DNA from: a virus | Reading direction: 5' to 3' (one strand) | Virus record (IMG/VR): IMGVR_UViG_3300033145_001721 | Coordinates: 1-64,000 of that record | Length of the DNA: 64,000 nucleotides | Shown: positions 40,072 through 63,330 of the stretch, piece by piece | Numbering within the stretch: position 1 is the first letter of the stretch | How the letters are laid out: each line of letters opens with the position of its first letter | Notes under the pieces: generated by a model | Seen by the model: only the letters and a program-made list of their open reading frames with translations | Told to the model about the DNA's origin: nothing | Databases searched by the model: none | Made by a program: the position numbers and the translations under genes

Positions 40072-41553
40072 TTATCGCTTCTCACCAGATTGTAGTTGGG
40101 GCTCAGGCAATTCCAGATCTTCCAAATCATCTTCTCTGTCTACAACATTATCCCCAATAGCTTCTGCTTGATCTTCATCAAGACCCAAAATCGTAACCAA
40201 GAAATCCTTTTCCGATATCAATGCATCGACTTGGCCTTGCACATACTTAGACATAGCCTCTGTTTGGTCTTTTGCTGTTTCGGCTTTTTCCTTTGGAGTA
40301 GGTGTATCACGTTCCGGCCATTTAACGATGCATGGCTCCTCCGTCACAGGCAAAATACCTAACAACTGTAATCGCTCAACAAACGGTCGAATAAGTAAAG
40401 GCGTAACATAGTTTTTCTGCCGACCACACACACGCTCCAGCCACGTCTTTCGATCCTGACCACCTGCCAACTTACCTTCCTCAGTACCCATAAAAACGCG
40501 ATACGGAACATCAATACCAATACAAATGAGCAGAATTTGGGATTTGATATACGGTTCCGGATCGGTTAATTTTGGTGAGATGTCTTGTGCTTTCATACCG
40601 GATGAAAATAAATAACGTTGCATACCATCATAGTAATCACTCAAAGCTTCCTTCATCTCAGTTTTTTGATCAGCAGTCAACACAGTGCCCGCTGGCACAA
40701 TTTCCGGATCGACGCCCCAAGCAGTACCACTAATACCAGCACGCCAAAACATCTCACCACTACTGGAACTGATCTTACGCAAATCGAGAATATTATTGTA
40801 GACAGCTTGCAATCGAGACTCCCCAAACAACTCACTCGTCAAACGATTGTCCGCATAATGCAGTACTCTTGTCCAATGAATACGAATGTCCTTAGAAATA
40901 CCCCCAGTACCCCCAGTAGTCACATTCTCCATCGTCACTTTGTAAAACAATGGCAATCCATAACGCGGACTATTGGTGCTAGTTTCTCGCTTTTCAATAG
41001 TTACAGCCGATTCGTCAAAACATTTCACAAACAATAAACGGTGTCCTTTTGTAGCACCTGCAAAATCATCAGGCATCACACCGTCTACAATTTCAACCGA
41101 CTCCACTGGAGTATCCAATTTACCACCATCATCAATACCCAAAAGCATCAGACCATAACGACCAATCCCCGACAGCACATCCATGCGCTTCAAAAAATGC
41201 AAGACGTGTTTCTTTCGGCACAGCAAATCCCACGTCTTTTCAAACTCAGTCTCATCCTTTGTGTCCTCTGTTTCATACACATCCGGCAAACCCACCCAGC
41301 ACTCATCAGGCCAAAGATTTACAACACGCCGCGCCACCCCATTACGATCAAACAACTTACGACATTGTGACGATTCAATATCTGCTGGATAGCGACATTC
41401 ATAATCGATATCCAAACCAGGGCTCAAAAACTGCAACAACGAATTCACACGCGATTGAGATCGCAATACATTTTGGTACAGCCCCTGCAATTGTTGATTC
41501 TCGACTGATGTATCTGACGATTTTGCCTTGTGTATTACTTTTTTCTTGGCCAT
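40072..41553 (-). CDS. portal protein (DUF1073-like)
   Basis: Follows TerL; ARRVVN..PDECW, IHWTRVLH, GES.L, VPYRVFMG..G.LA. Confidence 0.85.
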   Translation of the reverse strand: MAKKKVIHKAKSSDTSVENQQLQGLYQNVLRSQSRVNSLLQFLSPGLDIDYECRYPADIESSQCRKLFDRNGVARRVVNLWPDECWVGLPDVYETEDTKDETEFEKTWDLLCRKKHVLHFLKRMDVLSGIGRYGLMLLGIDDGGKLDTPVESVEIVDGVMPDDFAGATKGHRLLFVKCFDESAVTIEKRETSTNSPRYGLPLFYKVTMENVTTGGTGGISKDIRIHWTRVLHYADNRLTSELFGESRLQAVYNNILDLRKISSSSGEMFWRAGISGTAWGVDPEIVPAGTVLTADQKTEMKEALSDYYDGMQRYLFSSGMKAQDISPKLTDPEPYIKSQILLICIGIDVPYRVFMGTEEGKLAGGQDRKTWLERVCGRQKNYVTPLLIRPFVERLQLLGILPVTEEPCIVKWPERDTPTPKEKAETAKDQTEAMSKYVQGQVDALISEKDFLVTILGLDEDQAEAIGDNVVDREDDLEDLELPEPQLQSGEKR

Positions 41554-41568
41554 GATTTATCCTCACAA

Positions 41569-43044
41569 TTACAAATTGTTGAATCCTATTTGGAATGTTC
41601 CCTGGCACGTCTGTCCAAATGCCCCGGATAACGCATCAACTTGATCCTTGAATTTGCTGAACGGAAAATATTGTATCTCACCAATAAACGGTGCGTGCCA
41701 TGCCTCTGGCAATCCGTCAATGTACCCCTCCGGGGCCAAATACATGTTTCCACCATTCACTTGGGATGCTACCGGATCAGCACGCAACTCTTTACTGCCA
41801 GTAGGTCGATCAGCTACAATACGCCACCCAGCTAGATTGCGCATAGTGGCTTGTGCATCCCCCTTACCCGAACCCCCTGGTTCCTGTTCAATCCCAACAA
41901 CCACATGTTTACCATCTAACTCTGCTCGCTGCCTAATTCGATTTTCCCGTGCGCGGCTTTCTAACCGAAATCGATCCACATGAAGAATGCACCAATTCCC
42001 ATCCAAATCTTTGCCCAACCGCAATCCTACCGTCCAACAACCATCATCATAGGTGGCAGCTTTATCCCAATACCGAATCTGTTTAACCCATTTTCTAGGA
42101 TTGGTAGGATCGGGAGGAGATTTGACAATCAATTTATTAGCCTGAAACATACCACCCCCGACGGGAACAGGTGATTGGTCATATTGACCCGCATACATAA
42201 AATCGCCACTTGCTTTGAGTTCCCGAAGTGCTGCCCGACCTAAACGTTTGGGGTTGAGCATTTTGTCTTGATCATAATAATATTTCTTTAGGCTCGCAGG
42301 CTTTACCAATGGCGATAATGTAGCAGGCAAACAAACATGTTTCACACGAATCTCCCCGCGTTCCGCCATATCCAAAAGAAATCCTGTAGGATCTTCTTGA
42401 GACAACCGCTGCATTATGAGTATAGTAGGCACTAAATCTATTGAGCGCTTTCTGGATGGCAATGCTTCCAGAATAAACTCTTTGACTGCTTTCGTTTCTG
42501 CAATAGACCTAGCTGCCCTAGGATTTAATGGATCATCTATAACCACCAAATCTCCATGCTTCCCAGTTATGCTGCCTTGTGTGCCCGCACTATATCTCAC
42601 GCCACCAGCTTTCGTGCCATACGTGCCGACAGCATTCATGTCACCTCGAATTACAACTTCTGGAAAGCAATCTTTGTACTTTTCACTCCGTATCAAATCT
42701 CTAGCTTTACGCGCATGCCCCACCATCAAATTTTGCTCGTAAGAACAACCGATGAAATTCATAGATGGGTTTCTAGCCCATATCCATCCATGCAAAAACA
42801 TCGCAAATATCGTAGACTTGAGACTGACCGGGGGGATATTGTATATGATATAATCATAACGTTTCTTTTTGCGTGCTAGTATTCGCTCCACTTCGCGTTG
42901 TGCATCCCAACACAAATACTTAATGTGCCAATTGGATTGGAGCGGTTCATTCTGTACGACTATAGGCCAAAACTCTTTCACGAATTCGTAGAAAGATTTC
43001 CGCGTAATACTCCGGATGATATCGTATTCACGAAACGAAATCAT
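41569..43044 (-). CDS. terL: terminase large subunit
   Basis: NIPP..LKST, VIDDP, IMQRL..EDP, RYWDKA, EQEPGGSGK, KDQVDA. Confidence 0.93.
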   Translation of the reverse strand: MISFREYDIIRSITRKSFYEFVKEFWPIVVQNEPLQSNWHIKYLCWDAQREVERILARKKKRYDYIIYNIPPVSLKSTIFAMFLHGWIWARNPSMNFIGCSYEQNLMVGHARKARDLIRSEKYKDCFPEVVIRGDMNAVGTYGTKAGGVRYSAGTQGSITGKHGDLVVIDDPLNPRAARSIAETKAVKEFILEALPSRKRSIDLVPTILIMQRLSQEDPTGFLLDMAERGEIRVKHVCLPATLSPLVKPASLKKYYYDQDKMLNPKRLGRAALRELKASGDFMYAGQYDQSPVPVGGGMFQANKLIVKSPPDPTNPRKWVKQIRYWDKAATYDDGCWTVGLRLGKDLDGNWCILHVDRFRLESRARENRIRQRAELDGKHVVVGIEQEPGGSGKGDAQATMRNLAGWRIVADRPTGSKELRADPVASQVNGGNMYLAPEGYIDGLPEAWHAPFIGEIQYFPFSKFKDQVDALSGAFGQTCQGTFQIGFNNL

Positions 43045-48538: not shown

Positions 48539-49064
48539 ACTATACAACCGTCTATATGAAGCATTCCGCAACTTCAAAACAAAAAAACATGGAAAAGATT
48601 ATTCAAACGACCAATGGGTGCAGCTATCCTATCTACAGGTTGACCGTGCTTTGGGTTTACCAAAAATGCCGAGTCGAAAGTTTCCAGGCCCCCGAAGACT
48701 TCACGGCCTACGTCGATCCCAACTGATCGGCAAAATTGACAAATACACCAGAAGACACGAGAAGCCATTCCGATTTGAAATTCTGCCGAAACAAGGCTGT
48801 CAGATTTGGCACACGTCAACTGATATTGCCCAATATGAAATCAGACGTGCAAACAAGTATTCTTTACACAGGGCTAAACTCAACAGAAAACGTCTGGACG
48901 ATACTCTCATACTACCCGACATCGATCCAAAACACCGACAAATGATAAAAGCCAAACGAGCACGAGAATTAGCTGATGTCAAATCATACAATGAGATGGA
49001 AAAATTACTCGTCATGTACGAACAACCTCCATCAAAACAAAAAGCATTGCCCAAACCAAAATAG
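48525..49064 (+). CDS. basic hypothetical protein
   Basis: Coupled to the ParB gene. Confidence 0.6.
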   Translation: MKTSELYNRLYEAFRNFKTKKHGKDYSNDQWVQLSYLQVDRALGLPKMPSRKFPGPRRLHGLRRSQLIGKIDKYTRRHEKPFRFEILPKQGCQIWHTSTDIAQYEIRRANKYSLHRAKLNRKRLDDTLILPDIDPKHRQMIKAKRARELADVKSYNEMEKLLVMYEQPPSKQKALPKPK

Positions 49065-49067
49065 ACA

Positions 49068-49151
49068 TACAATATACAATTGAGCGGGAAAGACGCAGCC
49101 GAATCGCCTTCCGATGAATTGAAACGAATTAGAAAGGAAATTTTAACATGA
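49068..49151 (+). repeat. 84-bp direct repeat copy 2 (orphan primase 3' end)
   Basis: Encodes YNIQLSGKDAAESPSDELKRIRKEILT with no start codon. Confidence 0.9.
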
Positions 49152-49573
49152 GCGAAAAACAAAATCCAGAAATCCTGAAAGCTTGGAACGAAAGACAAAA
49201 GCTCTGGGCTGAAGGTGACAAGCTTTGGACGGAAGACTACAAGCTCAAAGCAGAAGGTGACAAGCTTTGGGCAAAAGGCAACAAGCTCAAAGCAGAAGGT
49301 GACAAGCTCTATGCAGAAGGCGACAAGCTCTGGGCAGAAGGCGACAAGCTCAGAGCAGAAGGCGACAAGCTCAGAGCAGAAGGCGACAAGCTCAGAGCAG
49401 AAAGCGACAAGCTCAGTGCTGAAGGCGACAAACTTTGGGCAAAAGGCAGCAAGATCCAAACAGAAGGAGACCTAATCTTCATCAACAAAGTCATCGAGAT
49501 ACATGGAAACATTGAAGTTGAATGGAAAGGGGGCGCCTGCTATCTCAACAATGGAGAAGTGTACGGCGCATAA
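49148..49573 (+). CDS. heptad-repeat coiled-coil protein
   Basis: About 12 copies of KL(W/R)AEGD from 21-bp repeats (49198-49470). Confidence 0.75.
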   Translation: MSEKQNPEILKAWNERQKLWAEGDKLWTEDYKLKAEGDKLWAKGNKLKAEGDKLYAEGDKLWAEGDKLRAEGDKLRAEGDKLRAESDKLSAEGDKLWAKGSKIQTEGDLIFINKVIEIHGNIEVEWKGGACYLNNGEVYGA

Positions 49574-50556: not shown

Positions 50557-51960
50557 GTGAAGATCCGGAAATCACGCAACTCTGCTGATGAGCATACAGT
50601 ACTTGCAGCCATGGTAATGGATGATGTAGTATGCGGTCGTGTGGCAAGTAAATGGAAGTCTGATGCATTCAAATCGAAGTGGTCCAATCTGGTAGCAAGT
50701 TGGTGTGTCCGATATTACAACAAATATGAACATGCACCCAAACGTCGTATTCGCAATTTGTTTGAACGCTGGGCTGCAAAAACACAAGATGACTCACTGA
50801 TTGAAAGTGTGGAAACGTTTTTGGAGGAAGTATCAGACGAATTTGTACATGATAAAATAAACACCAACACGGAATATGTACTTGATGCAGCAGGCCGATT
50901 GTTTAACAGCGTTCATCTGGAACGCTTGCGAAACGAAATCGAAGACAGTTTGGAAAATAGCGATCCTGAAACTGCCATCGAAACAATCACCAATTGGAAT
51001 CGTATCAATCTTGGTGTGGGTGAATGGATCGATCCGTTTACAGATCAAGCCGTGTTGAAACAAGCGTTTGCACATTCTCATGATCCACTGATTCGTTATC
51101 CAGGTGACTTGGGTAAGTTTTTTGGTACACAATTAGAACGAGATGGATTGATTTCATTTGAAGGTCCAGAGAAGAGAGGAAAAACCTTCTGGCTTATGGA
51201 TATGGTATTTCGCGCTGTATTACAACGCAGGCGTGTAGCATACTACCAAGCGGGGGATATGTCACAAGATCAAATTGTCCGTCGCATGGCCTCTCGCATT
51301 TCCCGTAGACCTATATACCCTGGTGTATTTCGATATCCCGAAAAACTGAAAGTGCAACATCGTGGGAAACTTACTAAAGCCAGAGCTATACGCACACGTC
51401 GAACATTCAAACAAGGACTCAGTTGGCGACAAGTATACAAAGATGGTACGTCTTTCATGGCTAACAAAGCAAAAAGTGATCACAACCTGTTGCGTCTTTC
51501 CATTCATCCAAACGATAGTTTGCACGTACGTGATATTGATACCATGCTCAAAGAGTGGCAGCGCGACGGATGGCCGGTGGATGTTGTGGTGATTGACTAC
51601 GCAGATATTTTGGACATGACGTATAATGGCATTGAGGGGCGTGATCGAATCAACCAAACGTGGAAAGATTTGCGGCGAATATCACAAGTATACCATTGTC
51701 TTGTCATCACCGCTACGCAAACTAACAGCAGTTCATATCAAGCTACCGTTATCGACCGCCAGCATTTTAGCGAAGACAAACGAAAACGAGCACACGTTAC
51801 CGGATCAATAGGTCTCAACCAAACGGAGGAAGAAAAGAAGTCTGGCATCATGCGTTTGAATTGGGTAGTCAAGCGCGAAGGTGCTTATTTTCCGAGCAAA
51901 TGTGTGTATGTAGCAGGGTGTCCCGAAATTGGAAACTTGGCAATCCAATCGAGCTTCTGA
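50557..51960 (+). CDS. DnaB-like replicative helicase
   Basis: GPEKRGKT Walker A, VVIDYAD Walker B, TATQTN, SED..K. Confidence 0.85.
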   Translation: MKIRKSRNSADEHTVLAAMVMDDVVCGRVASKWKSDAFKSKWSNLVASWCVRYYNKYEHAPKRRIRNLFERWAAKTQDDSLIESVETFLEEVSDEFVHDKINTNTEYVLDAAGRLFNSVHLERLRNEIEDSLENSDPETAIETITNWNRINLGVGEWIDPFTDQAVLKQAFAHSHDPLIRYPGDLGKFFGTQLERDGLISFEGPEKRGKTFWLMDMVFRAVLQRRRVAYYQAGDMSQDQIVRRMASRISRRPIYPGVFRYPEKLKVQHRGKLTKARAIRTRRTFKQGLSWRQVYKDGTSFMANKAKSDHNLLRLSIHPNDSLHVRDIDTMLKEWQRDGWPVDVVVIDYADILDMTYNGIEGRDRINQTWKDLRRISQVYHCLVITATQTNSSSYQATVIDRQHFSEDKRKRAHVTGSIGLNQTEEEKKSGIMRLNWVVKREGAYFPSKCVYVAGCPEIGNLAIQSSF

Positions 51961-52337: not shown

Positions 52338-52646
52338 ATGGAAAACATGATCAGTAAAATTGCCAGTGACAACGCCATGCATCTTTTGGACTGTGCATCT
52401 GCACTAGAGGAAACCAAACGTGCGTACAAGATCGAATGTGACATCGATTTTGCAGCAAGTGATTTAGCGACCTCGCTCAAATCACTTCAGACCGAGATCA
52501 ACGACTTGCAGGAATTCTTGAAGGGAGAACGCAGCCTCACCAACACCGGTATCAATCACTACGCAGACAATGTGAAAACTGCCGTGACCAAGTTGATGAT
52601 CCTGATGCCACAGCGTAAACATCACAATCATCTACTCCAGGACTAA
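52338..52646 (+). CDS. hypothetical protein
   Basis: Same 20-nt leader as the 52129 gene. Confidence 0.6.
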   Translation: MENMISKIASDNAMHLLDCASALEETKRAYKIECDIDFAASDLATSLKSLQTEINDLQEFLKGERSLTNTGINHYADNVKTAVTKLMILMPQRKHHNHLLQD

Positions 52647-52751
52647 GTTAGAATGCCAGAATGGAAGAAAAGACTAATCTTGTGTATAGCAGCGTATGTA
52701 GCGTTGCTGTTTTGAAACAATGCATTAACCTCCTTTGGAAAGGCAACAATC

Positions 52752-53324
52752 ATGGCAGCGAAAAAGACAAACAAAACCGCACCGAAGGGAACCCACAAAA
52801 GCGCCCCGAAGGCACCCAAGACTCTGGTCGTGACTCGCAAGAACGGTGTGAGCCTGATGAAGACATTCGGATTCACGGCACCCCACAAGCTCACCAACGA
52901 AAAACTGCTCATGCGGCTGCGTAAAATCGGTCAGTACATGGAAGCGTTTGAGGGCAAGCTGTCTGGTGATGATCAAAAGCTGGTGGACACCATTATCGCT
53001 GCTGGCGATAATATCAGCGTTGACGTCAGCGATCCGGCATTCGCTGAGCCGAAGAACCCGGACGGAAAGAAAACGGATACAAAAAAGAAGTCAGCCAAAA
53101 AGACGGCCAAGAGGATTGATTGCGTATGTGCCATGCTCAAGAAACTACCAGACAAGGGCGCTTCTATCGAGCAAGTGGCGAAGCTCGCCAACCAGATGTA
53201 TGTGAAAGGTGGTGGGGATGACAATGTCAAACAGACCATCCATCACTTGCGTGTGGTGATGCCCACGCTCCAGAATTTCGACATTATCAAAGTTGAGGAT
53301 GGCAAACTCTTTCCGGTCAAGTAA
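52752..53324 (+). CDS. Lys-rich putative DNA-binding protein
   Basis: GGAAAGG RBS; K/A/P-rich N-terminus; wHTH-like C-terminus. Confidence 0.65.
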   Translation: MAAKKTNKTAPKGTHKSAPKAPKTLVVTRKNGVSLMKTFGFTAPHKLTNEKLLMRLRKIGQYMEAFEGKLSGDDQKLVDTIIAAGDNISVDVSDPAFAEPKNPDGKKTDTKKKSAKKTAKRIDCVCAMLKKLPDKGASIEQVAKLANQMYVKGGGDDNVKQTIHHLRVVMPTLQNFDIIKVEDGKLFPVK

Positions 53325-53339
53325 GATTCTTTCTGTTCG

Positions 53340-53381
53340 AAGCCCCGGTCGGTTTTATCACTCGCTGACCGGGGCTTTTTC
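53340..53381 (+). terminator. intrinsic terminator
   Basis: AAGCCCCGGTCGG..CTGACCGGGGCTT followed by a T-run. Confidence 0.8.
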
Positions 53382-53608
53382 ATTGGCCTTCCAAATAGCC
53401 CCTTCTAAGCTGTAGTCCCTCCGCATCCACACCGATATACCCTCAAACGACATATAGCCCACTACGCGGGTCGTCTGTGGCCTAAAATCAAAAGGTATGG
53501 GCTGTGCCGGACGCCCTTTAGCCAGAATATTCTTTGTATTAGTCTGAATTCTCTTCTTTGCGATAATATCTGTAGAGTCCAGTTGATATTTGTTAGGAGC
53601 CAAATTCA

Positions 53609-54658
53609 ATGAAAGAATACAAAAACCCGTTTTGCATACGCCACGCCCACATGAGTTGCCCACTACCAATAACCCTAGAATCCTATTGGGCTTGTGAAGC
53701 TGACTGCCATCACTGCCCAGGTCATAAGCTGAATGAAATATGGGGGAAAGAGCAACGAGTCACTGATCCAGTCAAAGCCATACACAAATTACACAACGCT
53801 CTGCGAAACCCCCACCCACGCAGTCCCCTAGCGGTTGCACTGGCCATGAAGAAGACACTCTGGCTGGGAAGAAAGACTGATCCCTACCAACCGTTGGAGG
53901 CTAGAACTAAAACCACTAGAACCATCGTCCGTGGCTTGAACAAATTGAAGTGGTCGTATGTAGTTTGCTCTCGGTATACTGATCTGATGAGGCGCGATGA
54001 AGATCTATTTCGTCAAGGGCAATCAACATTACTGGTGGAAATCACTCCAGGTGGAGAAAGTGATTGGTCTTTATTTGAACGTAAGCGAACTACCCCAATA
54101 GAATTTCGATTGTCAGCAGCTGCTCGTTGGAATGCTCTTGGTATAAATGTTGGTGTTCGGGGAGAACCTTTTATTCCCGGTTATCATACACCTAAACAAT
54201 TTGAAGATATGCTGCGAAGGCTGAAAAGCTATGGATTGTATAGCTACAATACATACAATCTCCATCTGAACGAATACAATGCACGCAGGTTGAGCAGTAT
54301 TGGATTGGACATAGAAAAGATTTGGCATCATAATCAAGATCGGTTGTGGCGACCGATACAACGCCAGCTTTGTGAAATAGCTGACAAACAAGGTATCATT
54401 CTAGGCTGTCCCGATTTCGTCAACGTGCCAAAAGGATGGTGCAGTCGTACCAATACGTGTTGTGGTGTATCTGTACCTAACCCATTCAAATTCAATACAC
54501 ACTGGTGGCGCAGGCTTTTGCAAAATGGTAAAACCCCTGAACAAACCATCAAGAAAACATGGGAAGGTATAGGTACAGAGGATGATCAGCAGGAAGGTCG
54601 AGCGATAATATTAGGAACGAGTAAAAACAAATATACAATAAAGGATGCTGAGTTATGA
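53609..54658 (+). CDS. radical SAM protein (SPL/SplB-like)
   Basis: CEADCHHC; GRKTDPYQP.E; RL.A..L..G..V.VRGEPFIPG; C-terminal CCG. Confidence 0.8.
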   Translation: MKEYKNPFCIRHAHMSCPLPITLESYWACEADCHHCPGHKLNEIWGKEQRVTDPVKAIHKLHNALRNPHPRSPLAVALAMKKTLWLGRKTDPYQPLEARTKTTRTIVRGLNKLKWSYVVCSRYTDLMRRDEDLFRQGQSTLLVEITPGGESDWSLFERKRTTPIEFRLSAAARWNALGINVGVRGEPFIPGYHTPKQFEDMLRRLKSYGLYSYNTYNLHLNEYNARRLSSIGLDIEKIWHHNQDRLWRPIQRQLCEIADKQGIILGCPDFVNVPKGWCSRTNTCCGVSVPNPFKFNTHWWRRLLQNGKTPEQTIKKTWEGIGTEDDQQEGRAIILGTSKNKYTIKDAEL

Positions 54659-55380
54659 TCTATACTATTGGAAACCAAAAGTTGGATATACCTGAAACCG
54701 GATCAAAGCGGAAGATACGAACACCACGTCAGGTTGTACCATGGCGGGACATGGCTGAAACTTGTCGCAATGTAGATGCAATTTGCAGCATTATTCAAAA
54801 ACCTCCGTGTACAATTGTGGACGGTATAGCGCGTGCTGGATTTTGGGGTGCTGTGTTTCGTAACAGGTGGCCCAAATGTAAACTGCTGATGAATGGAGAG
54901 AAAGAAGATTGCATACGTGTTCTCAAACAAAATTTCCCTCAAGATAGACACGTTCAAAAAAATATCAAACATTGGTGTCCTCCCGTATCTGATTTAGCCA
55001 TATTAGATTTTGATAAGTTCACACTGAAAAAGATGGACCAATGGGAAAGGGTTTTGTCTACATGGGCGGCAAGAACGCAGCACTTTATATTTGTGGATGG
55101 TGCTTGTTTTGGATTTAAGTTTGGTACATTAAAATCCTACAATATAAGCAATCCCAATGAGTATTACTATTTGTTGAACGAGCGTTTGAAAAAAATTATA
55201 AGCAAAAGAATTGTAGCTGTATCTGCATTTGGTAACGCTGCTACAATTCTTATGCAAGACCGACACCCCCGCAAAATCAAATTTGTACCCCCAACAAATT
55301 TATCTTTATCACGGGGAAATAAAGTCTACAAATTCAACCCCAATCCTAAAAGGTCTAGGCTTGGATTAGTTAACAAATGA
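54655..55380 (+). CDS. hypothetical protein, possibly Rossmann/MTase-like
   Basis: IVDGIARAG, DLAILDF. Confidence 0.4.
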   Translation: MIYTIGNQKLDIPETGSKRKIRTPRQVVPWRDMAETCRNVDAICSIIQKPPCTIVDGIARAGFWGAVFRNRWPKCKLLMNGEKEDCIRVLKQNFPQDRHVQKNIKHWCPPVSDLAILDFDKFTLKKMDQWERVLSTWAARTQHFIFVDGACFGFKFGTLKSYNISNPNEYYYLLNERLKKIISKRIVAVSAFGNAATILMQDRHPRKIKFVPPTNLSLSRGNKVYKFNPNPKRSRLGLVNK

Positions 55381-56372
55381 TAAATTGGACTGATGTATTG
55401 TCGGATGTTCAAGAGTTCAAATGCAAGAAAAAGACTCTTGGACAGCTAAATTGCTTAGCTGTTGATTCTCTATACGGATCAATGTGGGGACTCAATCATC
55501 GATACATGACTTTGCAGCAAGCTCTGACCAAAGATTTTTCAAGTATAACTGCTTACGCAATTCGTCGCATTCATCGCTTACTGGAAATTGGTCCTGTTTC
55601 ATTTCGTCCTCGCAAACTTCCAAAAGTTCGTCGTATAGGATTCGGCACATATGGATGGAAGTACGACTCTGAACTCATAGCTTTAGCGGTCAAGCATAAC
55701 CTTCTGATTGATACTGCCGAAGGTTATGGCTATGGCAAAGTGGAAACTGAATTAGGCAAAGCTTTGGTACATCACAACGCTGAAGTCACTACCAAGGTAT
55801 CACGATCTCACATGTCCCCAAAAGCTTTGCCATCAGCTGCACTCCGCAGCCGTAACAAACTTGGACTTATTCCTCACTACCAACTCCACTTTCCTCATAG
55901 CCTATATTCCGATGAGCAAATTGGGCAGTCGTTAGTACAAGTCCGTGAATCCAAAACGATCCAATCTATTGGGCTTGGCAATTGCAGCGTAGATATGATT
56001 GAATCTATGCAAGCTTTTCTGTCAGATTATTCTGGTGATGTTATTCGTAGTGTTCAAATGCGATACAATTTGGCCGACCGAAGAATTGAAAATGCATTGA
56101 TGCCTTATTGTCGAAAAAGAGGCATTGCGATAATAGCTTACAGTCCGTTGGGTCAAAAGTTTTCTACTTTGCAAACACCCACATTGAGTCATATAGCGCG
56201 GCGCTATCATTGTACGACGGCACAGATTGCTTTGGCTTGGGTGTTGCGAATGCCTGGGATTATACCTATCCCCCGTACTAATAATGTAGATCATTTGAAA
56301 GACAATATAAAGGCACTTAGTATTCATTTGACCAAAAACGAAATACACAAACTCAACAACGCTTATTTATGA
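55377..56372 (+). CDS. aldo/keto reductase
   Basis: IGFGTY, IDTAEGYG..E..LG, TKV, LHFP, IGLGN, AYSPLG, AQIALAW, IPIP. Confidence 0.9.
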   Translation: MINWTDVLSDVQEFKCKKKTLGQLNCLAVDSLYGSMWGLNHRYMTLQQALTKDFSSITAYAIRRIHRLLEIGPVSFRPRKLPKVRRIGFGTYGWKYDSELIALAVKHNLLIDTAEGYGYGKVETELGKALVHHNAEVTTKVSRSHMSPKALPSAALRSRNKLGLIPHYQLHFPHSLYSDEQIGQSLVQVRESKTIQSIGLGNCSVDMIESMQAFLSDYSGDVIRSVQMRYNLADRRIENALMPYCRKRGIAIIAYSPLGQKFSTLQTPTLSHIARRYHCTTAQIALAWVLRMPGIIPIPRTNNVDHLKDNIKALSIHLTKNEIHKLNNAYL

Positions 56373-56379
56373 GGATGTT

Positions 56380-57780
56380 ATGGACTACTATGAATTGCGA
56401 TCCGTTTTAAGTCGCATTATCCCACGTGAAACTTCATTGGTACCAACACACCATATGGTTAACGCCATAAAAGAAAAAGGGCGCAAACAAAACTACTCTG
56501 AATATAAATTGAACCAAGATAAATGGGTGAAACAAGAACGACTATTGAATGATCAAGAGATTTCTTCATTTATTGAAATCAGCTGCCGTGCAGCTGCGTG
56601 TCCAATGCCACTGAATTTGGATATCTGGGATGGTATTCTTTGTCCTTATGGATGTAAATACTGTTTCGCCAATCTATTTCGCGCATCTCTTTACACCGCC
56701 TTTTTTGATAATAGCAAAACACTAGGGCTGCGACATTGTAACCCTACAAAATACAAAAAGGAAATGGACAAACTTTTCAAGCATCGGGGAGAAAATCCAC
56801 ATGACGTTTCCAATTCTTTAGCCAAAGCCATCGCCATGGGATTGCCTATTCGCTTCGGAATTCGCTTTGAGGATTTTATAAAAGCAGAAGAACGACATGG
56901 CGTCAGCTTAGAGTTAATGAATTATTTAGCTGATCACAAATATCCCCTAATGATCAACACTAAATCAGATTTGGTATGTCATGATGAATATGTAGATGCC
57001 ATGATTCGAACAAAATCAGCTGTTCACGTAACACTCATATCCAGTAACAATAAAATCTTGAAAGCGTTAGAGCCCAATGCACCTTCCTATGAACGCCGAT
57101 TGGAAGCTATGCGAATTCTTTCTGCTGCAGGTATCAGAGTTGTTGCCCGCATTGAACCCTATCTGGTATATGTTACAGATCAAAAGGAGGATGTTGAAAA
57201 ATACATCAAAGACGTTTGGGATGCAGGTGTACGAAACATCACCTTTGATAACTATTCGTACAGTGCGAAAAACCCAGGTATCCGTCAAGCGTTTCGGAAT
57301 GAAGGTATTGATTTTGATCGGTTGTTTTTGTTGGGGTGTGATTCACAACCACTCAGCAGCTTATTGTTGGGTTCGTTTATGCAGATGTTTCGTGATGCAG
57401 GTTTCAGCTGTTCGACTTTTGACATGGGTAATGTTCCGGATAACGATCAGAATATATGTTGCGAAGTCGGTGATTGGTTTGGTTCCGGATTCAATTATGG
57501 TTGTGCTGTTATGGCTGCCAGATTCATTCAAAGTCGTAAAGGGCGTGAAACAACATGGAAGAATTTTGAAAGTTGGGTGGATGATCACGGAGGTTTTCTC
57601 CGTGATACATTGAAGCATGAAGTTCATCAACTGTGGAATTGCGAAGGGCTAGATGCATACAGTCATAGTTGGGCTAGAGGATTGGAAGCTGTGGGCAGCG
57701 ATAGTTCAGGTTTAGTGTGGGTTTGGCATGATACGGACTTCCGATTGGATCTCTACGATAATATAGCTAGAGGTTTGTAG
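56380..57780 (+). CDS. radical SAM protein (paralog of 53609..54658)
   Basis: CPYGCKYC; INTKS; LEPNAPS...RL.A...L..AGI.V..RIEP; C-terminal CCE. Confidence 0.85.
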   Translation: MDYYELRSVLSRIIPRETSLVPTHHMVNAIKEKGRKQNYSEYKLNQDKWVKQERLLNDQEISSFIEISCRAAACPMPLNLDIWDGILCPYGCKYCFANLFRASLYTAFFDNSKTLGLRHCNPTKYKKEMDKLFKHRGENPHDVSNSLAKAIAMGLPIRFGIRFEDFIKAEERHGVSLELMNYLADHKYPLMINTKSDLVCHDEYVDAMIRTKSAVHVTLISSNNKILKALEPNAPSYERRLEAMRILSAAGIRVVARIEPYLVYVTDQKEDVEKYIKDVWDAGVRNITFDNYSYSAKNPGIRQAFRNEGIDFDRLFLLGCDSQPLSSLLLGSFMQMFRDAGFSCSTFDMGNVPDNDQNICCEVGDWFGSGFNYGCAVMAARFIQSRKGRETTWKNFESWVDDHGGFLRDTLKHEVHQLWNCEGLDAYSHSWARGLEAVGSDSSGLVWVWHDTDFRLDLYDNIARGL

Positions 57781-57815
57781 ATTTCAAAGGTTGAACAAAA
57801 ACGAAAGGTCTGATC

Positions 57816-58241
57816 ATGGGTAAGGGACATACAGCACAAAACAGCAATTTAAGATTTACAAAGGCTGAAATGTGTTTACTTCTCAGTATATTTATACGGG
57901 GATGCCCGCCTCGTGTAATAAGATATATAGCAGAGATATTAGGTCGTTCGATTGAATCTATAGAGAGAGTAAAGCGTCGGTTATTATACGATGGTAGTGT
58001 TGAAGACTATGGGCACCCCCGTAGTTATTTGCAACCACCCAATTCCAACCCATGGACGACTTTAACAGGTTTCGCAAAGGAATACATTGAGGTACAATAT
58101 TTTAATCCTCATATCAAATGTTCCGTTTCAAAAATCAGCCAAAAAACAGGAATTCCAGAAGCTATTATTCAAGCAGAAGTTGACAAAGAGATCATTTCAA
58201 GAAACCGAAAAATCAAGAGGCACAAAAAGTTACTATCATAA
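57816..58241 (+). CDS. hypothetical HTH protein
   Basis: IAEILGRSIESI; ISQKTGIP. Confidence 0.5.
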   Translation: MGKGHTAQNSNLRFTKAEMCLLLSIFIRGCPPRVIRYIAEILGRSIESIERVKRRLLYDGSVEDYGHPRSYLQPPNSNPWTTLTGFAKEYIEVQYFNPHIKCSVSKISQKTGIPEAIIQAEVDKEIISRNRKIKRHKKLLS

Positions 58242-58268
58242 CCATCATCTACTAAAAGGGACAACCAT

Positions 58269-59006
58269 ATGAGCAAAATAAATGATCGCATCGAAACTAT
58301 ATTTTCACATGCTGTTGCACTCCAGCAGAGTGGACGCTTACGCAATACAATTTATTGTCGAGGATCATTTGTCTACATCTTCAACCAAGATCATACAGTG
58401 TTGATGCGATTCACTATTCCCTCTGCAAGTGTCAAATTCAAACACCCTATAAGCTTCTTTGCCAACGACTATGACAGTCGTCGTTTCACGGAGAAAGATG
58501 GGTGCATTTGTTTTATCCAAACAAGTAGTGACAACACCCACGAATATGTGCGTGTAAAATCTTGCCGCGTCCCGAATTTCAAAACCACAGACATCAAAAA
58601 GCTATTCGATAAGTATGAATCAAGATTTAAGAAGGTCAATGGCGTTGAAATATCTGAAGCTTTTTGTCAGTTTCTCGACAGTGCTTTGAGCCATGTCGAA
58701 TTCAGTAGTAAAGACGGAAAACTTATTGGCGTCCAGCGTAACATTTACACGGGTGCGGCAACAACAATCACACAAAATAAGAAGCAACAAAAACTTTTGA
58801 CATCGGAATCAAAATTACGAAACTTCGAGCCTATCGGATTGCGAACCAATGACTTCACAGCAATATTTACATTTGCAAAGTCTGTACAATTTTGGTTCGG
58901 CCGCAAGGGCACCGTTCGTTTTTGCAGCAAAGATCCTCGTATGCCCTTTGTGGGTTTCATTAGCCAATGTATGTATGATGAATTAGGAGTAGACTATGGG
59001 AGGTAA
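58269..59006 (+). CDS. hypothetical protein, possibly sliding-clamp-like
   Basis: 245 aa beta-rich; NQDHTVLMRF; context only. Confidence 0.35.
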   Translation: MSKINDRIETIFSHAVALQQSGRLRNTIYCRGSFVYIFNQDHTVLMRFTIPSASVKFKHPISFFANDYDSRRFTEKDGCICFIQTSSDNTHEYVRVKSCRVPNFKTTDIKKLFDKYESRFKKVNGVEISEAFCQFLDSALSHVEFSSKDGKLIGVQRNIYTGAATTITQNKKQQKLLTSESKLRNFEPIGLRTNDFTAIFTFAKSVQFWFGRKGTVRFCSKDPRMPFVGFISQCMYDELGVDYGR

Positions 59007-59157
59007 ATCACGAAAGACCGGGGGCATCAGTCTCAAACTGATCCAGAAAATAGCAAACCGAACCAATACAGGTAAAAGCTGTGGAACCAAAAAAAATCAA
59101 TCAAAACAGCGTCTTGGTTTATCTGAAAATTCTACAGATGACAAAGGTTCATCCTAA
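58996..59157 (+). CDS. 53-aa basic peptide (not in ORF track)
   Basis: AGGAG RBS; MGGKSRKTGGISLKLIQK.. Confidence 0.55.
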   Translation: MGGKSRKTGGISLKLIQKIANRTNTGKSCGTKKNQSKQRLGLSENSTDDKGSS

Positions 59158-59857
59158 TTTTTGGACAAGCAAAGACTATTTACATTACAGCGAAACTCCT
59201 TGGATTGAAAAGGATGGATTGTCTGGGTGGTGGGATGAAACAGAATGGCTGATTCCACCCTTAGATAATTTTGGATGTTTTGTAACGGCAGGTGTAAATG
59301 TATACGCTGGATGGCCTCAAATGCATAACGAGGATACTGATAAGTTTGTAGACCACCAATTCGTTTACAATCCTCAGGATTTCCTAAAAATGGAAGGTCA
59401 TTCATGGCAAACCTTCCGTAAAAACGTACGGAAGTTTCCTAGGCGAAACTCAGGTGATTTACAATACAGACGGTTCGACAACGAAGAGGGTTTGGAAAAA
59501 TTGCTTGTGCTTTGGGCTCAAGGCCGAACAATCTTTGATCCCGATACTATGGTAAGAACTATAATGCGTAGTCCCAACCGAAAAGGATTGTTCTTGAATG
59601 ACTGTTTGATTGGTGTCAACGTATGGGATGAAAACTGGATGTATGTGAACTACCGTTACTGCATTGATGATAGTTCAGGATTTCTCAATGAGTATTTGCG
59701 ATGGAGGTTTTATACAGATGAAGAAATTTTGAACAAAACCAAATTAGTCAACGATGGAGGTTCACTAGATTCTGATACACTCTATCGTTTCAAAATGAAA
59801 CTCAACCCTGTAACCGTATGGAAAGTCTATAGTATTAGGAGTATTAACAATGGCTAA
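59081..59857 (+). CDS. DUF2156/MprF-C-like GNAT-fold aminoacyl transferase
   Basis: FVY..DF..MEG.....RKNVRKF; VNDGG.L....LYRFKMKLNP; start may be 59138. Confidence 0.6.
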   Translation: MEPKKINQNSVLVYLKILQMTKVHPNFWTSKDYLHYSETPWIEKDGLSGWWDETEWLIPPLDNFGCFVTAGVNVYAGWPQMHNEDTDKFVDHQFVYNPQDFLKMEGHSWQTFRKNVRKFPRRNSGDLQYRRFDNEEGLEKLLVLWAQGRTIFDPDTMVRTIMRSPNRKGLFLNDCLIGVNVWDENWMYVNYRYCIDDSSGFLNEYLRWRFYTDEEILNKTKLVNDGGSLDSDTLYRFKMKLNPVTVWKVYSIRSINNG

Positions 59858-59903
59858 AATCAAACGTGAACTATTATTGAAAGAACTGAATTCAGTCGTT
59901 CCC
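59836..59903 (+). repeat. 68-bp direct repeat copy 1 (orphan 5' end of clamp gene)
   Basis: 66/68 identical to 60966-61033. Confidence 0.92.
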
Positions 59904-59940
59904 ATAAAATTCCATGCGATAATATATTATAATTGCACAC

Positions 59941-60957
59941 GTGTTTAGACTACGAATTATAGAAAGAGCTAATATGGGCAAGCCCAAAGTGCTTAAGTAT
60001 AACCTCGAAAACATACCAACTCGCAAAGACGTCTTCGGCAATGAACGAAAAGACTTATCGGTCAAAGGCCGAATAGGATTTGTACCAATATCTATTTGGC
60101 GGTGTGATTGGGGATTGGTTAAAAAACTGAAATGCATAATTGGCGATTTTGGTCAGGTCCGATCATTAGATCAAACACAGTCTTCGGGAATTTGCGGGCA
60201 TAGACATAAATCTCAAAATGCACGCACGTACGAAAATACATACTGTCACAGTATGCAAAACAAATCTACGGGTGGTTGGCACCGAATCGGTTCCCGATAT
60301 GGAGATCGCAGCACAGACGCTGATGATAACGTTTCCATATTCAATCCGCATTTAGCATTGATGATTCTTTCGGCGTACTGTCCAAAAGGGGCATACATTT
60401 ACGACCCATTTGCTGGGGGTGGCACGCGCGGATTCATCGCAACCGCAATGGGATTCAAATATTATGGGCGGGAGATACGTCAAATCGAAGTAAATCGGAT
60501 AAAACGAGTCCAAAAAAAATTGAAACTCAAATTTCATATCTTCTGTGCAGATGCGAAAAGCGATCCACCAAAAAATGAACGGTTTGACTTTAGTTACACA
60601 TGCCCCCCATATTGGAATATGGAAGTCTATTCCAATTTACCGGATGACATTTCTAATGCCAATACATACCAAGAGTTTCTCTCTGGTATGAAAAAAGCGT
60701 TGATCAGTACATACAAAGCCCTTAAACCCGGCACGTTATCAATTTGGGTTGTTGGAAATTTTAGGCAAGGACACAGATTAATTCATTTTAATGGTGATTT
60801 GATACACAAAGCAGAAGAAGTCGGTTTCCAACTTCATGATGAAATTATTTTCTGGGGAGGATCTGGACGAGCAGGCCTCCGCTCGGGGAACTTCGTAAAA
60901 AACAGAAAGTCAGTTAGAATTCACGAATATGTAATAATACTGAAAAAGCCGAATTAA
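59941..60957 (+). CDS. DNA amino-methyltransferase (N4C/N6A)
   Basis: YDPFAGGG motif I; TCPPYW motif IV; ALKPG; HEYVII. Confidence 0.8.
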   Translation: MFRLRIIERANMGKPKVLKYNLENIPTRKDVFGNERKDLSVKGRIGFVPISIWRCDWGLVKKLKCIIGDFGQVRSLDQTQSSGICGHRHKSQNARTYENTYCHSMQNKSTGGWHRIGSRYGDRSTDADDNVSIFNPHLALMILSAYCPKGAYIYDPFAGGGTRGFIATAMGFKYYGREIRQIEVNRIKRVQKKLKLKFHIFCADAKSDPPKNERFDFSYTCPPYWNMEVYSNLPDDISNANTYQEFLSGMKKALISTYKALKPGTLSIWVVGNFRQGHRLIHFNGDLIHKAEEVGFQLHDEIIFWGGSGRAGLRSGNFVKNRKSVRIHEYVIILKKPN

Positions 60958-60965
60958 CCAACATG

Positions 60966-61033
60966 TAGGAGTATTAACAATGGTTAAAATCAAACGTGAA
61001 CAATTATTGAAAGAACTGAATTCAGTCGTTCCC
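60966..61033 (+). repeat. 68-bp direct repeat copy 2 (RBS + first 18 codons of clamp gene)
   Basis: Matches 59836-59903. Confidence 0.92.
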
Positions 61034-62005
61034 GGGCTATCAGAGCGCGAGATTATTGAACAATCATCATGCTTTGTATTCAAGGACGGAAACGTTTACA
61101 CATTCAATGACGAAATAGCTTGTTGGGCTAAATCCTCTTTGGACATCACTGGAGCGGTATCCGCTAAAAAGCTGATAAGTCTACTGCAAAGTATGTCTGA
61201 AGAAAGGCTGGACGTCAACGCATCCAAAAACGGCAAGCTGGTTATCAAGGGGATACACAAGCGAGCTACATATGCTCTTGAATCTCGTATCGCTCTGCCC
61301 ATTGATTCTATCAAGAAACCCAAAACGTGGAAATCACTACCATCTGATTTTCTCGAAGGGCTGTCCCTAGTAGCTGATTGTGCAGGCCGAGATGAATCAA
61401 ACTTTGTTTTGACTTGTATCCATATCGCACCAGACAAACTTGAAGCAAGCGACAACGATCGTGTAGCTAAGTTCATCACAAAAACCCGCGTGCGTAAATC
61501 CATGCTTATCCGCAAAGACACCATCAAACATCTGGTCGCTGCCGGAGTGACTTATTTTGGAGAAACATCTGATTGGGTTCACTTTCGTACCGGCAAAGGC
61601 CCAATCATTTGTTGCCGACGATACACCGAAAGCTTCCCTAACACAGATAAGGCTTTTCAAATCAGCGGGAAGAAAATGAGCCTGCCGGAAGGGTTGGAAA
61701 AAGCTTCTCGTCGTGCTGCTATTTTCAGTGCTGACAATCCAGAAGACAGTGACATATTTGTCACACTCACTACCAATAGGGCCCTGATTAGAGGCACAGG
61801 CACAGGTGGGGAGTTTCAGGAAATCAAAAAGATAGCGTATACAGGAAAACCCTTAACCTTTTTGATTTCTCCCACACAACTGATTGCATTAACCCGCAAG
61901 CATAACAGCTGTATTGTAGCACAAGAAAAGCTAAAATGCAAAAGCGGACAATTTGAATTCGTAGCTGCGTTGGGTGTGACTCCGCAAGAAGATGAGAATG
62001 TGTAA
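60980..62005 (+). CDS. dnaN: DNA polymerase sliding clamp (beta subunit-like)
   Basis: IKREQLLKELNSV, DES..VLTCIHI....LEASD..R, FPN; 341 aa. Confidence 0.75.
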   Translation: MVKIKREQLLKELNSVVPGLSEREIIEQSSCFVFKDGNVYTFNDEIACWAKSSLDITGAVSAKKLISLLQSMSEERLDVNASKNGKLVIKGIHKRATYALESRIALPIDSIKKPKTWKSLPSDFLEGLSLVADCAGRDESNFVLTCIHIAPDKLEASDNDRVAKFITKTRVRKSMLIRKDTIKHLVAAGVTYFGETSDWVHFRTGKGPIICCRRYTESFPNTDKAFQISGKKMSLPEGLEKASRRAAIFSADNPEDSDIFVTLTTNRALIRGTGTGGEFQEIKKIAYTGKPLTFLISPTQLIALTRKHNSCIVAQEKLKCKSGQFEFVAALGVTPQEDENV

Positions 62006-62052: not shown

Positions 62053-63330
62053 TTGAGGACCAAATCAAGCTATGAAAAAGTTGGAAGAAATGTGATGAGA
62101 AAAGGATTCTTTGTCCCAAGCGACATATCCACATCCAAATCTATGAGCACAACCCCTCGTTGTGGTTTGTGCAATTTACATCGTACATGCATACATCCCA
62201 AGATGCCGCCTACGGGTAAAGGCCACAAACGATTATTGTTTGTGGCTGAAGCTCCAGGTGGTTTGGAAGATGAAAAGAACACACAACTCATCGGAAAATC
62301 TGGGCAGTACTTGCGATCAATGTTGAAACGTTATGGAATAGACTTAGACAAAGATGCCCGAAAAACGAATGCTGTAATTTGTTGTCCACCAAAAAACGAA
62401 AAGCCAACAAGCGTTCAAATTGCGGCCTGCCGTCCAAACGTGCTGAAAGAAATTGTACGTTTCCAACCTACCTGTATCGTATTGTTAGGTGCCACAGCAG
62501 TTGAATCTGTCATACCTATTTTCTGGAAAGACAAAGTCGATGCATTCTCACGATGGACCGGATGGCAGATACCAATACAAAGCAAAAACGTTTGGGTGTG
62601 CCCTACTTATCATCCAGCGTACATACTACGCAAACCGGGAAAACAATACACACTGCTTTTCAAACAACACATCAAGGCTGCTGTCAAATTGCAAAAACCA
62701 CCATGGGTAAAGGTGCCAGATTTCAGTACTGGAATTGAAATTATCACATCCCCATCACAAGCGGGTCGATACCTACATCAACTATATCGATCTAAGCCCA
62801 CACACACCACCTGGGACTTGGAAACGTCCAGCCTGAAGCCTGATACCCCTGGATCGGAGATCGTTTGTTGTAGCGTGTGTACGGGGCCAGAAACAGTAGT
62901 GTTTCCCTGGGCTGGCGACGCAGTAGACGAAATGTTAGAGATTCTCCAAAATCCACACATCCGAAAGATAGCAGCCAACAATAAGTTTGAGCACCGTTGG
63001 ATTCTACACAAACACAAAGTGCACGTAAATGGTTGGTATTATGATGTAGTGCTTGGGGCACACGCTTTGGATAATAGACCAAAAGTCACAGGTGTAAAAT
63101 TCCAATCATTTGTGCGACTAGGGCAACAAAGTTACAATGATCATATCGAACCATACTTACGTGCAGCCTCGTACAAACTCAACAGAATCCTTCAACTGCC
63201 TATTACTGAAGTAATGTTGTACTGTGGAATAGATTCAAAAGTAGAAAACGAATTGGCACTAATACAAATACCCGAACTGATAAAACAAGGAAAGGTTCAC
63301 CGACGTGCAATGCAAACCTATAACGCATGA
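62053..63330 (+). CDS. family 4 uracil-DNA glycosylase domain fused to PolA 3'-5' exonuclease
   Basis: CGLC..C, AEAPG..ED, GKSG, NAVICCP, YHPAY; then DLET, N.KFE, Y...D; start likely MRKGFF. Confidence 0.85.
   Translation: MRTKSSYEKVGRNVMRKGFFVPSDISTSKSMSTTPRCGLCNLHRTCIHPKMPPTGKGHKRLLFVAEAPGGLEDEKNTQLIGKSGQYLRSMLKRYGIDLDKDARKTNAVICCPPKNEKPTSVQIAACRPNVLKEIVRFQPTCIVLLGATAVESVIPIFWKDKVDAFSRWTGWQIPIQSKNVWVCPTYHPAYILRKPGKQYTLLFKQHIKAAVKLQKPPWVKVPDFSTGIEIITSPSQAGRYLHQLYRSKPTHTTWDLETSSLKPDTPGSEIVCCSVCTGPETVVFPWAGDAVDEMLEILQNPHIRKIAANNKFEHRWILHKHKVHVNGWYYDVVLGAHALDNRPKVTGVKFQSFVRLGQQSYNDHIEPYLRAASYKLNRILQLPITEVMLYCGIDSKVENELALIQIPELIKQGKVHRRAMQTYNA

Follow-up and report, generated by a model that had tools for sequence, protein, structure and literature searches.

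The IMG/VR virus record IMGVR_UViG_3300033145_001721 is a 74,972-bp phage genome with direct terminal repeats (DTR) and a completeness of 100%; its first 64 kb, a stretch of 64,000 nucleotides, form the window analysed here. Among the replication genes of the window lies an island (53324-59829) whose core encodes two paralogous radical S-adenosylmethionine (SAM) enzymes, a PCNA-like clamp protein, a microprotein of 53 amino acids (aa) and a presumed aminoacyl-tRNA-dependent transferase. The favoured explanation, to which a probability of about 0.55 is assigned, is that this island is a self-contained, horizontally mobile unit whose products chemically alter bases in the phage's own DNA while it is being replicated or shortly afterwards. 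An earlier note on this DNA had described a candidate hypermodification cluster beside the replisome genes. A functional unit does exist there and DNA modification remains its best reading, but the gene membership proposed for the cluster was partly wrong.

The invariant core and its island

Homologs of the second radical SAM gene, rSAM2, came up at 80 loci when IMG/VR was scanned with an alignment (a preceding single-protein scan had returned nothing). Co-conservation was counted by tblastn with the window proteins on dereplicated loci, and a locus was taken as informative where its contig reaches far enough. The core genes of the window are as follows:

53609-54658, plus strand: rSAM1, radical SAM enzyme of the spore photoproduct lyase (SPL) branch, 349 aa; NCBIfam PA0069/Rv2578c-type matches below cut-off; phrog_13321
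56380-57780, plus strand: rSAM2, SPL-branch radical SAM enzyme, 466 aa; PF04055 at 30.5 bits against a cut-off of 29.5; Rv2578c, PA0069 and mob_pairB matches below cut-offs
58269-59006, plus strand: o245, predicted two-domain PCNA-like sliding-clamp protein, 245 aa; AlphaFold2 (AF2) model with pLDDT 91, compared by Foldseek
58996-59157, plus strand: microprotein, 53 aa; its start and the o245 stop overlap, as do, in different frames, its 3' end and the 5' end of o258
59081-59857, plus strand: o258, predicted soluble tandem-GNAT protein of DUF2156/MprF-C/FemX fold, 258 aa; AF2 model with pLDDT 94, compared by Foldseek

The clamp protein o245 and the transferase o258 are each present in 57 of 57 informative loci, and rSAM1 is present in 47 of 49. 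The core comprises five genes, rSAM1, rSAM2, o245, the microprotein and o258, because the microprotein also occurs in 57/57 informative loci. Its position is between DnaB and the replicative clamp. Conversely, all 29 PolA-related loci that span DnaB to the clamp and lack rSAM2 also lack every other module gene, and this all-or-none co-occurrence rules out a chance juxtaposition of genes. The open reading frames (ORFs) listed in the earlier note are all present on the plus strand at the coordinates given there. The gene-neighbourhood check that it called for shows co-conservation of the radical SAM pair and the transferase, whereas a methyltransferase-like gene (o241), an aldo-keto reductase (AKR) gene and an amino-methyltransferase gene, all counted in the cluster, are absent from most loci. 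Two invariant core genes that lie within the bounds of the cluster, o245 and the microprotein, had gone unlisted. One further small ORF within the island is not part of the conserved module:

57816-58241, plus strand: o141, lineage-specific small ORF; faint helix-turn-helix-like matches, weak phrog and Pfam matches; found in 0 of 80 loci by tblastn

The island, 6.5 kb in length, is missing from the closest sister, the module-less locus L090 (PolA 94% at the amino acid level, flanks 82-86% at the nucleotide level). In a blastn comparison of the window with L090, positions 52400-53323 align, a gap follows, and the alignment resumes at 59830. These end points make the island an indel of 6.5 kb that lies exactly upstream of the clamp gene. 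Its left edge is defined as follows:

53324-53608, no strand: left island junction; homology to the module-less L090 ends at 53323

A PolA-based scan found that the majority of backbone relatives are without the module. Just 5' of the island, at 52752-53324, a Lys/Ala-rich protein of 190 aa is encoded by a conserved backbone gene, with 19 sister-locus ORFs at the same position.

At the right edge, the amino-methyltransferase of the earlier note is an N6/N4 DNA methyltransferase (PF01555) and was wrongly counted as a cluster member. Two features of the window bear on its origin:

59836-59903, plus strand: first copy of a 68-nt direct repeat, comprising the ribosome-binding site and first 18 codons of the clamp gene; matches L090 5179-5249
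59941-60957, plus strand: N6/N4 DNA methyltransferase; PF01555, E 7.6e-14; phrog_12517; flanked by the 68-nt repeats

The second repeat copy, at 60966-61033, is identical to the first at 66 of 68 positions, and the first copy marks the original junction of island and clamp gene. The methyltransferase co-occurs with the module in 8 of 40 informative loci, and in the sister L091 it is present and the island absent. Because L091 has the gene without the island and the 68-nt repeat brackets it, the methyltransferase is a separate cassette, a later insertion at the same junction, and was inserted by junction duplication. An extra radical-SAM-like gene of 504 aa lies between transferase and clamp in some module-bearing loci (L041:11754-13268, L045:8688-10211).

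Radical SAM enzymes, transferase and clamp

The two radical SAM proteins are homologous to each other (BLASTP E 9e-8; family profiles aligned by hhalign at 98.6%, E 9e-16, over 280 columns). The CX3CX2C motif is invariant in both, at C29, C33 and C36 of rSAM1 and C88, C92 and C95 of rSAM2. Superfamily membership follows from PF04055 for rSAM2; rSAM1, which has no Pfam match of its own, is linked by hhalign to the rSAM2 family. Family alignments hold four further invariant cysteines in each paralog, C17 (in CPL), C267, C284 and C285 in rSAM1, and C74 (in ACPMP), C344, C360 and C361 in rSAM2, which probably form an auxiliary metal or Fe-S site. The earlier description of two paralogous SPL-like radical SAM enzymes is thus borne out by BLASTP, hhalign and matches within the SPL/COG1533 branch, and the N-terminal CP.P and C-terminal CC that it had pointed out are real and invariant across both families. 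The most conserved gene of the island is rSAM2, with about 60% identity across the family and at least 548 homologs. Searches of PDB sequences with rSAM1, rSAM2 and the rSAM2-family profile gave nothing meaningful. One rSAM2 homolog of 604 aa (P0043) bears a Hint domain, and Hint/intein-type ORFs lie just upstream of the rSAM2 match in L051 (8662-9900) and L078 (8334-9329), that of L051 with a part resembling a DUF559 endonuclease.

The characterized enzyme that ties the pair to DNA is gp53 of Pseudomonas phage M6. In the M6 pathway to 5-(2-aminoethyl)deoxyuridine (5-NedU), gp51 is an amino acid:DNA transferase, gp52 a pyridoxal phosphate (PLP)-dependent decarboxylase, gp53 a radical SAM isomerase and gp54 a 5-hydroxymethyldeoxyuridine (5-hmdU) DNA kinase, and a ThyA-like hydroxymethylase takes part as well. 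gp53 converts N-alpha-glycinyl-thymidine in DNA into an isomer, from which gp52 removes the carboxyl group; the substrate of both is amino-acid-modified thymidine in the DNA polymer, and both act post-replicatively (PMC8989533). The M6 cluster was located on DQ163916 by means of the published gp53 motif, and Pfam confirmed its ADDT gene (PF18724), PALP gene, radical SAM gene, HMUDK gene (PF18723) and ThyA-like gene. The rSAM1 family is the closer gp53 homolog of the pair (hhalign 96.5%, E 8.5e-10), followed by the rSAM2 family (87%, E 3.9e-6), in line with the earlier statement that phage radical SAM enzymes rearrange amino-acid-modified bases. M6 gp52 likewise has a homolog among the cassette genes of sister modules, a PLP gene with 35% identity to it over 285 aa, its whole length (E 1e-53).

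The likeness to the M6 system consists of the gp53 homologs, the gp52 homolog in most sister modules, and the placement of tailoring enzymes beside the radical SAM gene. In contrast to M6, the island has two radical SAM enzymes rather than one, together with a tRNA-type transferase, a PCNA-like clamp and a microprotein. No gp52-type PLP decarboxylase stands beside the radical SAM gene in the window, although one fills the same slot in most sister modules; the window carries a methyltransferase-like protein and an AKR where the PLP enzyme would stand. Neither a ThyA-like hydroxymethylase (PF00303), nor a 5-hmdU kinase (PF18723), nor PF18724 (amino acid:DNA transferase/aGPT-Pplase) was found in the complete DTR genome at E<=1, and the same three families were absent at E<=0.1 from five other module-bearing genomes, three of them complete. 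Lacking all three enzymes, the genome departs from the known pathways at the entry step. ThyX (PF02511), the only thymidylate synthase-type gene in the genome, belongs to the backbone and was ruled out as a pathway component, being present in the module-less L090 record and in only one of the five other module-bearing genomes.

SPL handles a thymine-methyl radical in DNA. The SPL and COG1533 families (PA0069, Rv2578c, mobile pair protein B) belong to the same radical SAM branch as the island enzymes; in contrast to them, the invariant CP[LM]P...C...CC is specific to these phage families, and all NCBIfam scores fall far under their cut-offs. For the SPL family itself (TIGR04070), rSAM2 reaches 12.7 bits against a cut-off of 400 (E 0.046) and rSAM1 has no match. 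This kinship brings up the view of the island as a DNA repair device, in which SPL-like radical SAM lyases on a PCNA-like clamp would reverse UV-type or other base lesions. Such a device would account for the clamp association and the position among replication and repair genes, and many homologs are named "DNA repair photolyase" by JGI. However, the faint TIGR04070 match that speaks for it is the same one that falls so far below the SPL cut-off, and gp53, a modification enzyme, is the closest homolog that has been characterised. Repair would also leave unexplained the obligatory aminoacyl-tRNA-type transferase and the swappable PLP, oxidase, reductase and amidoligase genes; near-identical phages dispense with the island, and sister phages use its slot for base-modification genes. 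Repair is very unlikely.

The transferase o258 was assigned largely by structure. Its best Foldseek match is the DUF2156 protein 2hqy (E 1e-9, TMq 0.71), followed by MprF and the aminoacyl-phosphatidylglycerol synthases A-PGS and L-PGS (E about 1e-7) and by FemX (E 3e-5); Sbb17, other tRNA-dependent peptide synthases and ATE1 are also on the list, which ranges from E 1e-9 to 1e-5 and from TMq 0.5 to 0.71. By sequence, the match to PF09924 is below the family cut-off (14.8 bits against a gathering threshold of 27.5, E 0.016) and covers a basic helix region, FRKNxRK, and BFVD gave only weak GNAT matches. The earlier call of an MprF-like, soluble transferase is right, because the confident AF2 model matches DUF2156, MprF, aminoacyl-phosphatidylglycerol synthases, FemX and ATE1; the model is fully globular, with no membrane domain. 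On the strength of the model, o258 is presumed to be an aminoacyl-tRNA-dependent transferase. It shares its tandem-GNAT fold with DUF2156/MprF-C, the aminoacyl-phosphatidylglycerol synthases, FemX and Sbb17/Sba18. In contrast to MprF-type enzymes, it is without a membrane domain and scores below the Pfam cut-off, and its replisome context speaks against lipid or cell-wall substrates.

A precedent for the role proposed for o258, a GNAT-superfamily enzyme that feeds charged tRNA into DNA modification, is the Mom protein of phage Mu. Mom is a GNAT enzyme that transfers glycine from Gly-tRNA(Gly) to N6 of deoxyadenosine in duplex DNA, post-replicatively and in evasion of restriction (PMC13219725). 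The step proposed for o258 is chemically precedented because Mom moves glycine from Gly-tRNA to adenine in duplex DNA. The two differ in that Mom is a single-GNAT dimer acting alone, whereas o258 is a tandem GNAT that always occurs with two radical SAM enzymes, a clamp and a microprotein. Among the Foldseek PDB matches listed for o258 (ranks 1 to 50), no entry is described as Mom; no direct comparison with Mom was made.

A tRNA-binding fold also fits a different substrate. The enzymes might act on free nucleotides before replication, producing a modified deoxynucleoside triphosphate (dNTP), or on RNA, altering the tRNA of the host to counter its defences. There are phage hypermodifications that start with the nucleotide, and Elp3 combines radical SAM and GNAT chemistry on tRNA uridine. 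Against this stand the invariant, dedicated PCNA-fold clamp of the island and the post-replicative action of the gp52 and gp53 homologs on the DNA polymer; moreover, family scans of the island genes and the ten genes downstream of PolA found no nucleotide kinase, and no dNTPase beyond the backbone UDG-like domain. A nucleotide or RNA substrate is quite unlikely.

All top Foldseek PDB matches of the o245 model are PCNA (E about 1e-9, TM 0.5-0.6), and the model has the two-domain PCNA fold. The window would thus encode a second clamp alongside the DnaN-like one. Its neighbour, the microprotein, has a near-invariant N-terminus (MGGKSRK-G--S--LI), a variable Lys-rich middle and, after the Lys-rich stretch, a C-terminal G/P-[LF]-x-[LF] patch (RLGL in the window). 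Third codon positions vary freely, both codon families are in use for Ser5 (TCN and AGY) and for Arg6 (CGN and AGR), and the ATG is preceded by a Shine-Dalgarno sequence. A HMMER pass over 1.8 billion representatives found about 300 clusters at 50% identity, which are nearly all free-standing proteins 40-70 aa long; the ESM Atlas gave no usable match.

Similar tails occur on other proteins of these loci. The o241 family tail resembles that of the microprotein, the two window copies reading ...RLGLVNK and ...QRLGLSE. The enzymes of c8, another radical SAM family and the third here, are about 300 aa long; c8 lies directly 5' of the clamp gene in some module-less sisters (L101:5895-6806, L115:6269-7204) and has a basic tail ending in ...NLF or ...KLF. 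Two metagenomic proteins carry the microprotein as part of a larger chain: in P0133 it is fused to the C-terminus of a c8-type radical SAM enzyme, and in P0134 its N-terminus is joined to a DUF3102 domain. Shared tails and fusions make the microprotein look like a portable clamp-docking or adaptor peptide.

The microprotein could instead be the substrate. The transferase would then add an amino acid to its N-terminal GGKSRK segment and the radical SAM enzymes would modify the peptide, giving a clamp-bound peptide or cofactor, akin to a peptide made on the ribosome and modified after translation (RiPP) or to protein tagging at the replication fork, with the DNA left unmodified. The structural relatives FemX, Sbb17 and ATE1 do aminoacylate peptides or protein N-termini, the microprotein gene overlaps and directly precedes the transferase gene, its first seven residues do not vary and are clearly under purifying selection, and it accompanies the enzymes in 57/57 loci. 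However, the radical SAM enzymes belong to the SPL/gp53 branch, and neither has a Pfam match to a PqqD-like RiPP recognition element (RRE) or a SPASM domain at E<=0.1. The cassette PLP enzyme, moreover, is closely homologous to a DNA-acting decarboxylase. Fusion at the radical SAM C-terminus in P0133 leaves no free N-terminal glycine there, and the basic tails ending in LF on o241 and the c8-type enzymes suggest a docking motif rather than a substrate. Modification of the microprotein is accordingly an unlikely function of the island.

Tailoring cassettes and genome setting

Between rSAM1 and rSAM2 lies a slot of variable content, occupied in the window by two genes:

54655-55380, plus strand: o241, class-I methyltransferase-like Rossmann protein, 241 aa; motif I VDxxAGxGFW, then LDFDxFT in place of D/NPPY
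55377-56372, plus strand: AKR, 331 aa; PF00248 at 124.8 bits against 24, E 4.8e-36; phrog_8735

The methyltransferase resemblance of o241 is a weak one (SAM methyltransferases at E about 0.01 when its profile was compared with PDB; scattered weak Pfam methyltransferase matches), and its C-terminal tail is basic, with RLGL near the end. The AKR motifs IDTAEGYG, TTKV and QLHFP, read from the translation rather than from an alignment, fit the D-Y-K-H tetrad. In the AKR that is paired with o241, an N-terminal extension of 85 aa (55377-55631 in the window) lies outside the AKR profile and is absent from the AKRs associated with DAO in L008, L011 and L024. Both genes had been named in the earlier note, which was correct about the AKR fold and about a weakly methyltransferase-like ORF; as members of the core they do not hold up, o241 being found in 8 of 49 informative loci and the AKR, which is swappable, in 7 of 49. 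The slot was scored in 63 loci, 15 of them without an ORF of at least 70 aa, and its contents are as follows:

PLP fold-type II enzyme (PALP) alone: the commonest, with 29 distinct sequences
o241 alone: some loci
o241 and AKR: the type of the window
o241 and PLP enzyme: some loci
FAD oxidase (DAO) and AKR: L008, L024
PLP enzyme and amidoligase: L002
N6/N4 methyltransferase: some loci

The pair o241 and AKR is one of several interchangeable tailoring cassettes and is accessory. Judged by their families, the slot cassettes resemble known hypermodification toolkits. In the rSAM1 tree, the seven modules with o241 and AKR, that of the window included, form one clade (SH-aLRT 99), and because they do so the module of the window is a distinct subtype. 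The clade points to shared descent, not to co-evolution.

The wider DnaB-to-clamp interval is also a site of exchange. In 9 of the 29 module-less sister loci, QueD (PTPS), a QueE-like radical SAM enzyme and GTP cyclohydrolase I (FolE) occupy it (L107:1823-7609; also L118, L123, L125, L136, L138, L147, L150 and L154). These Que-type slots add a protein of about 300 aa, possibly a DNA transglycosylase, and sometimes a glycosyltransferase and a radical SAM protein of 439 aa. The lineage thus appears to use the interval for optional DNA-base-modification cassettes. Phage 7-deazaguanine clusters and the island are alike in being optional, cassette-like sets of DNA-modification genes in the same slot; they differ in that their enzymes and chemistry are unrelated, and no Que genes are present in the window.

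The genome is that of a tailed phage, with a terminase (41569-43044) and a portal (40072-41553) gene on the minus strand. A plus-strand replication arm begins at about 45 kb with a SNF2 helicase, a primase and a ParB-like protein. The following genes of this arm frame the island:

50557-51960, plus strand: DnaB-like helicase; replication arm, before the island genes
60980-62005, plus strand: DnaN-like sliding clamp; phrog_947, E 4e-27; 82% nucleotide identity to L090; backbone replication gene
62053-63330, plus strand: UDG-like/3'-5' exonuclease protein; PF03167 and PF01612; backbone gene
63305 onward (to 64000 in the window), plus strand: start of PolA; phrog_17; backbone gene

Pfam and phrog matches agree with the earlier placement of clamp, UDG-exonuclease and PolA directly downstream. 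The UDG-like/exonuclease and polymerase parts are two overlapping ORFs here and a single fused protein of 830-900 aa in L011, L030, L055, L060, L063 and others. Past the window, the record continues with a clamp loader, a RecA-like protein, FEN, a PDDEXK nuclease, SbcCD-like proteins and ThyX. Within the arm, a 141-aa ORF at 49148-49573 (plus strand) consists of repeated heptad-like units, (A/W)EGDKL(W/R/Y), and opposite it, at 48800-49459, the minus strand reads as ELVAFC repeats. Promoter and terminator scans gave nothing above shuffled expectation. Phages in GenBank yielded no DNA match and no protein match, and a search of contigs of metagenome-assembled genomes returned six contigs of mixed phyla, giving no host clue and no isolate.

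Proposed chemistry and significance

In the favoured explanation of DNA modification, o258 would take an amino acid from host aminoacyl-tRNA, and the two gp53-like radical SAM enzymes would create or rearrange the bond between amino acid and base. Transferase and radical SAM enzymes together would take the place of hydroxymethylase, kinase and amino acid:DNA transferase, with which the known thymidine pathways begin. The PCNA-like ring would hold the enzymes on DNA, and the role of docking or adaptor peptide would fall to the microprotein and to the C-terminus of o241, whose tail is similar. Here the adduct would be completed by carbonyl reduction (AKR) and possibly by methylation (o241), not by the gp52-type PLP decarboxylation of most relatives, so that the finished base is expected to be unlike the one made by the PLP-type relatives. 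Judged by their families, the AKR would imply a carbonyl intermediate that is reduced to an alcohol, and o241 a SAM-dependent step. The purpose is most likely protection from host nucleases. Co-occurrence, indel, predicted folds, homologies and the lack of the known entry enzymes are results of the analysis; we infer DNA as the substrate, aminoacyl-tRNA as the donor, the order of the steps and the role of the microprotein, as well as the "radical and redox tailoring" that the earlier note had placed after aminoacylation of a base.

Several points weigh against this explanation. The phage and all of its relatives are uncultured metagenomic contigs. The similarity of the radical SAM enzymes to gp53 is remote, at about 20% identity, and because the window is without a gp52 homolog, the link to amino acid chemistry is indirect for its subtype. 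GNAT-fold proteins can also use acyl-CoA. The tRNA scans found no tRNA gene in this genome and tRNA genes of mixed identities in 6 of 60 related loci, so that the module has no consistent tRNA partner. Assembly of o245 into a ring and the contacts among the proteins are predictions, the invariant microprotein could itself be the substrate, and positional equivalence and synteny are circumstantial.

A more specific form of the proposal is advanced tentatively, as possible rather than probable. In what would amount to a new chemistry of nucleic acids, a gp53/SPL-like radical SAM enzyme would activate an unmodified base in duplex DNA directly, for example at the thymine methyl group, and couple to it an amino acid delivered from aminoacyl-tRNA by the FemX-type transferase. 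The reaction would run processively on the dedicated PCNA ring, with the microprotein as adaptor or carrier, and would bypass the hydroxymethyl-dNTP, kinase and pyrophosphorylase entry that all thymidine pathways described so far share; in the subtype with o241 and AKR, it would lead to a previously unseen reduced (alcohol-type) or methylated adduct.

Hypermodified bases are the main means by which phages escape restriction and some CRISPR nucleases, and the enzymes that make them have become tools; glucosyltransferases and 5-hmU kinases are among them, as is Mom, which was the first DNA modifier of the tRNA-dependent kind. The module is widespread: rSAM2 has more than 500 homologs, and the microprotein falls into about 300 clusters. 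No paper describing it was found, nor any that treats radical SAM and PCNA together with phage and hypermodification, or DUF2156 together with phage and radical SAM, and no counterpart was found in GenBank phages. If the favoured explanation is true, the module would be a second, independent case of tRNA-fed DNA chemistry and the first DNA-modification pathway with its own sliding clamp, and it may represent a radical route that modifies canonical bases directly. Compact, all-or-none and equipped with interchangeable cassettes, the island is a natural combinatorial system open to heterologous expression.

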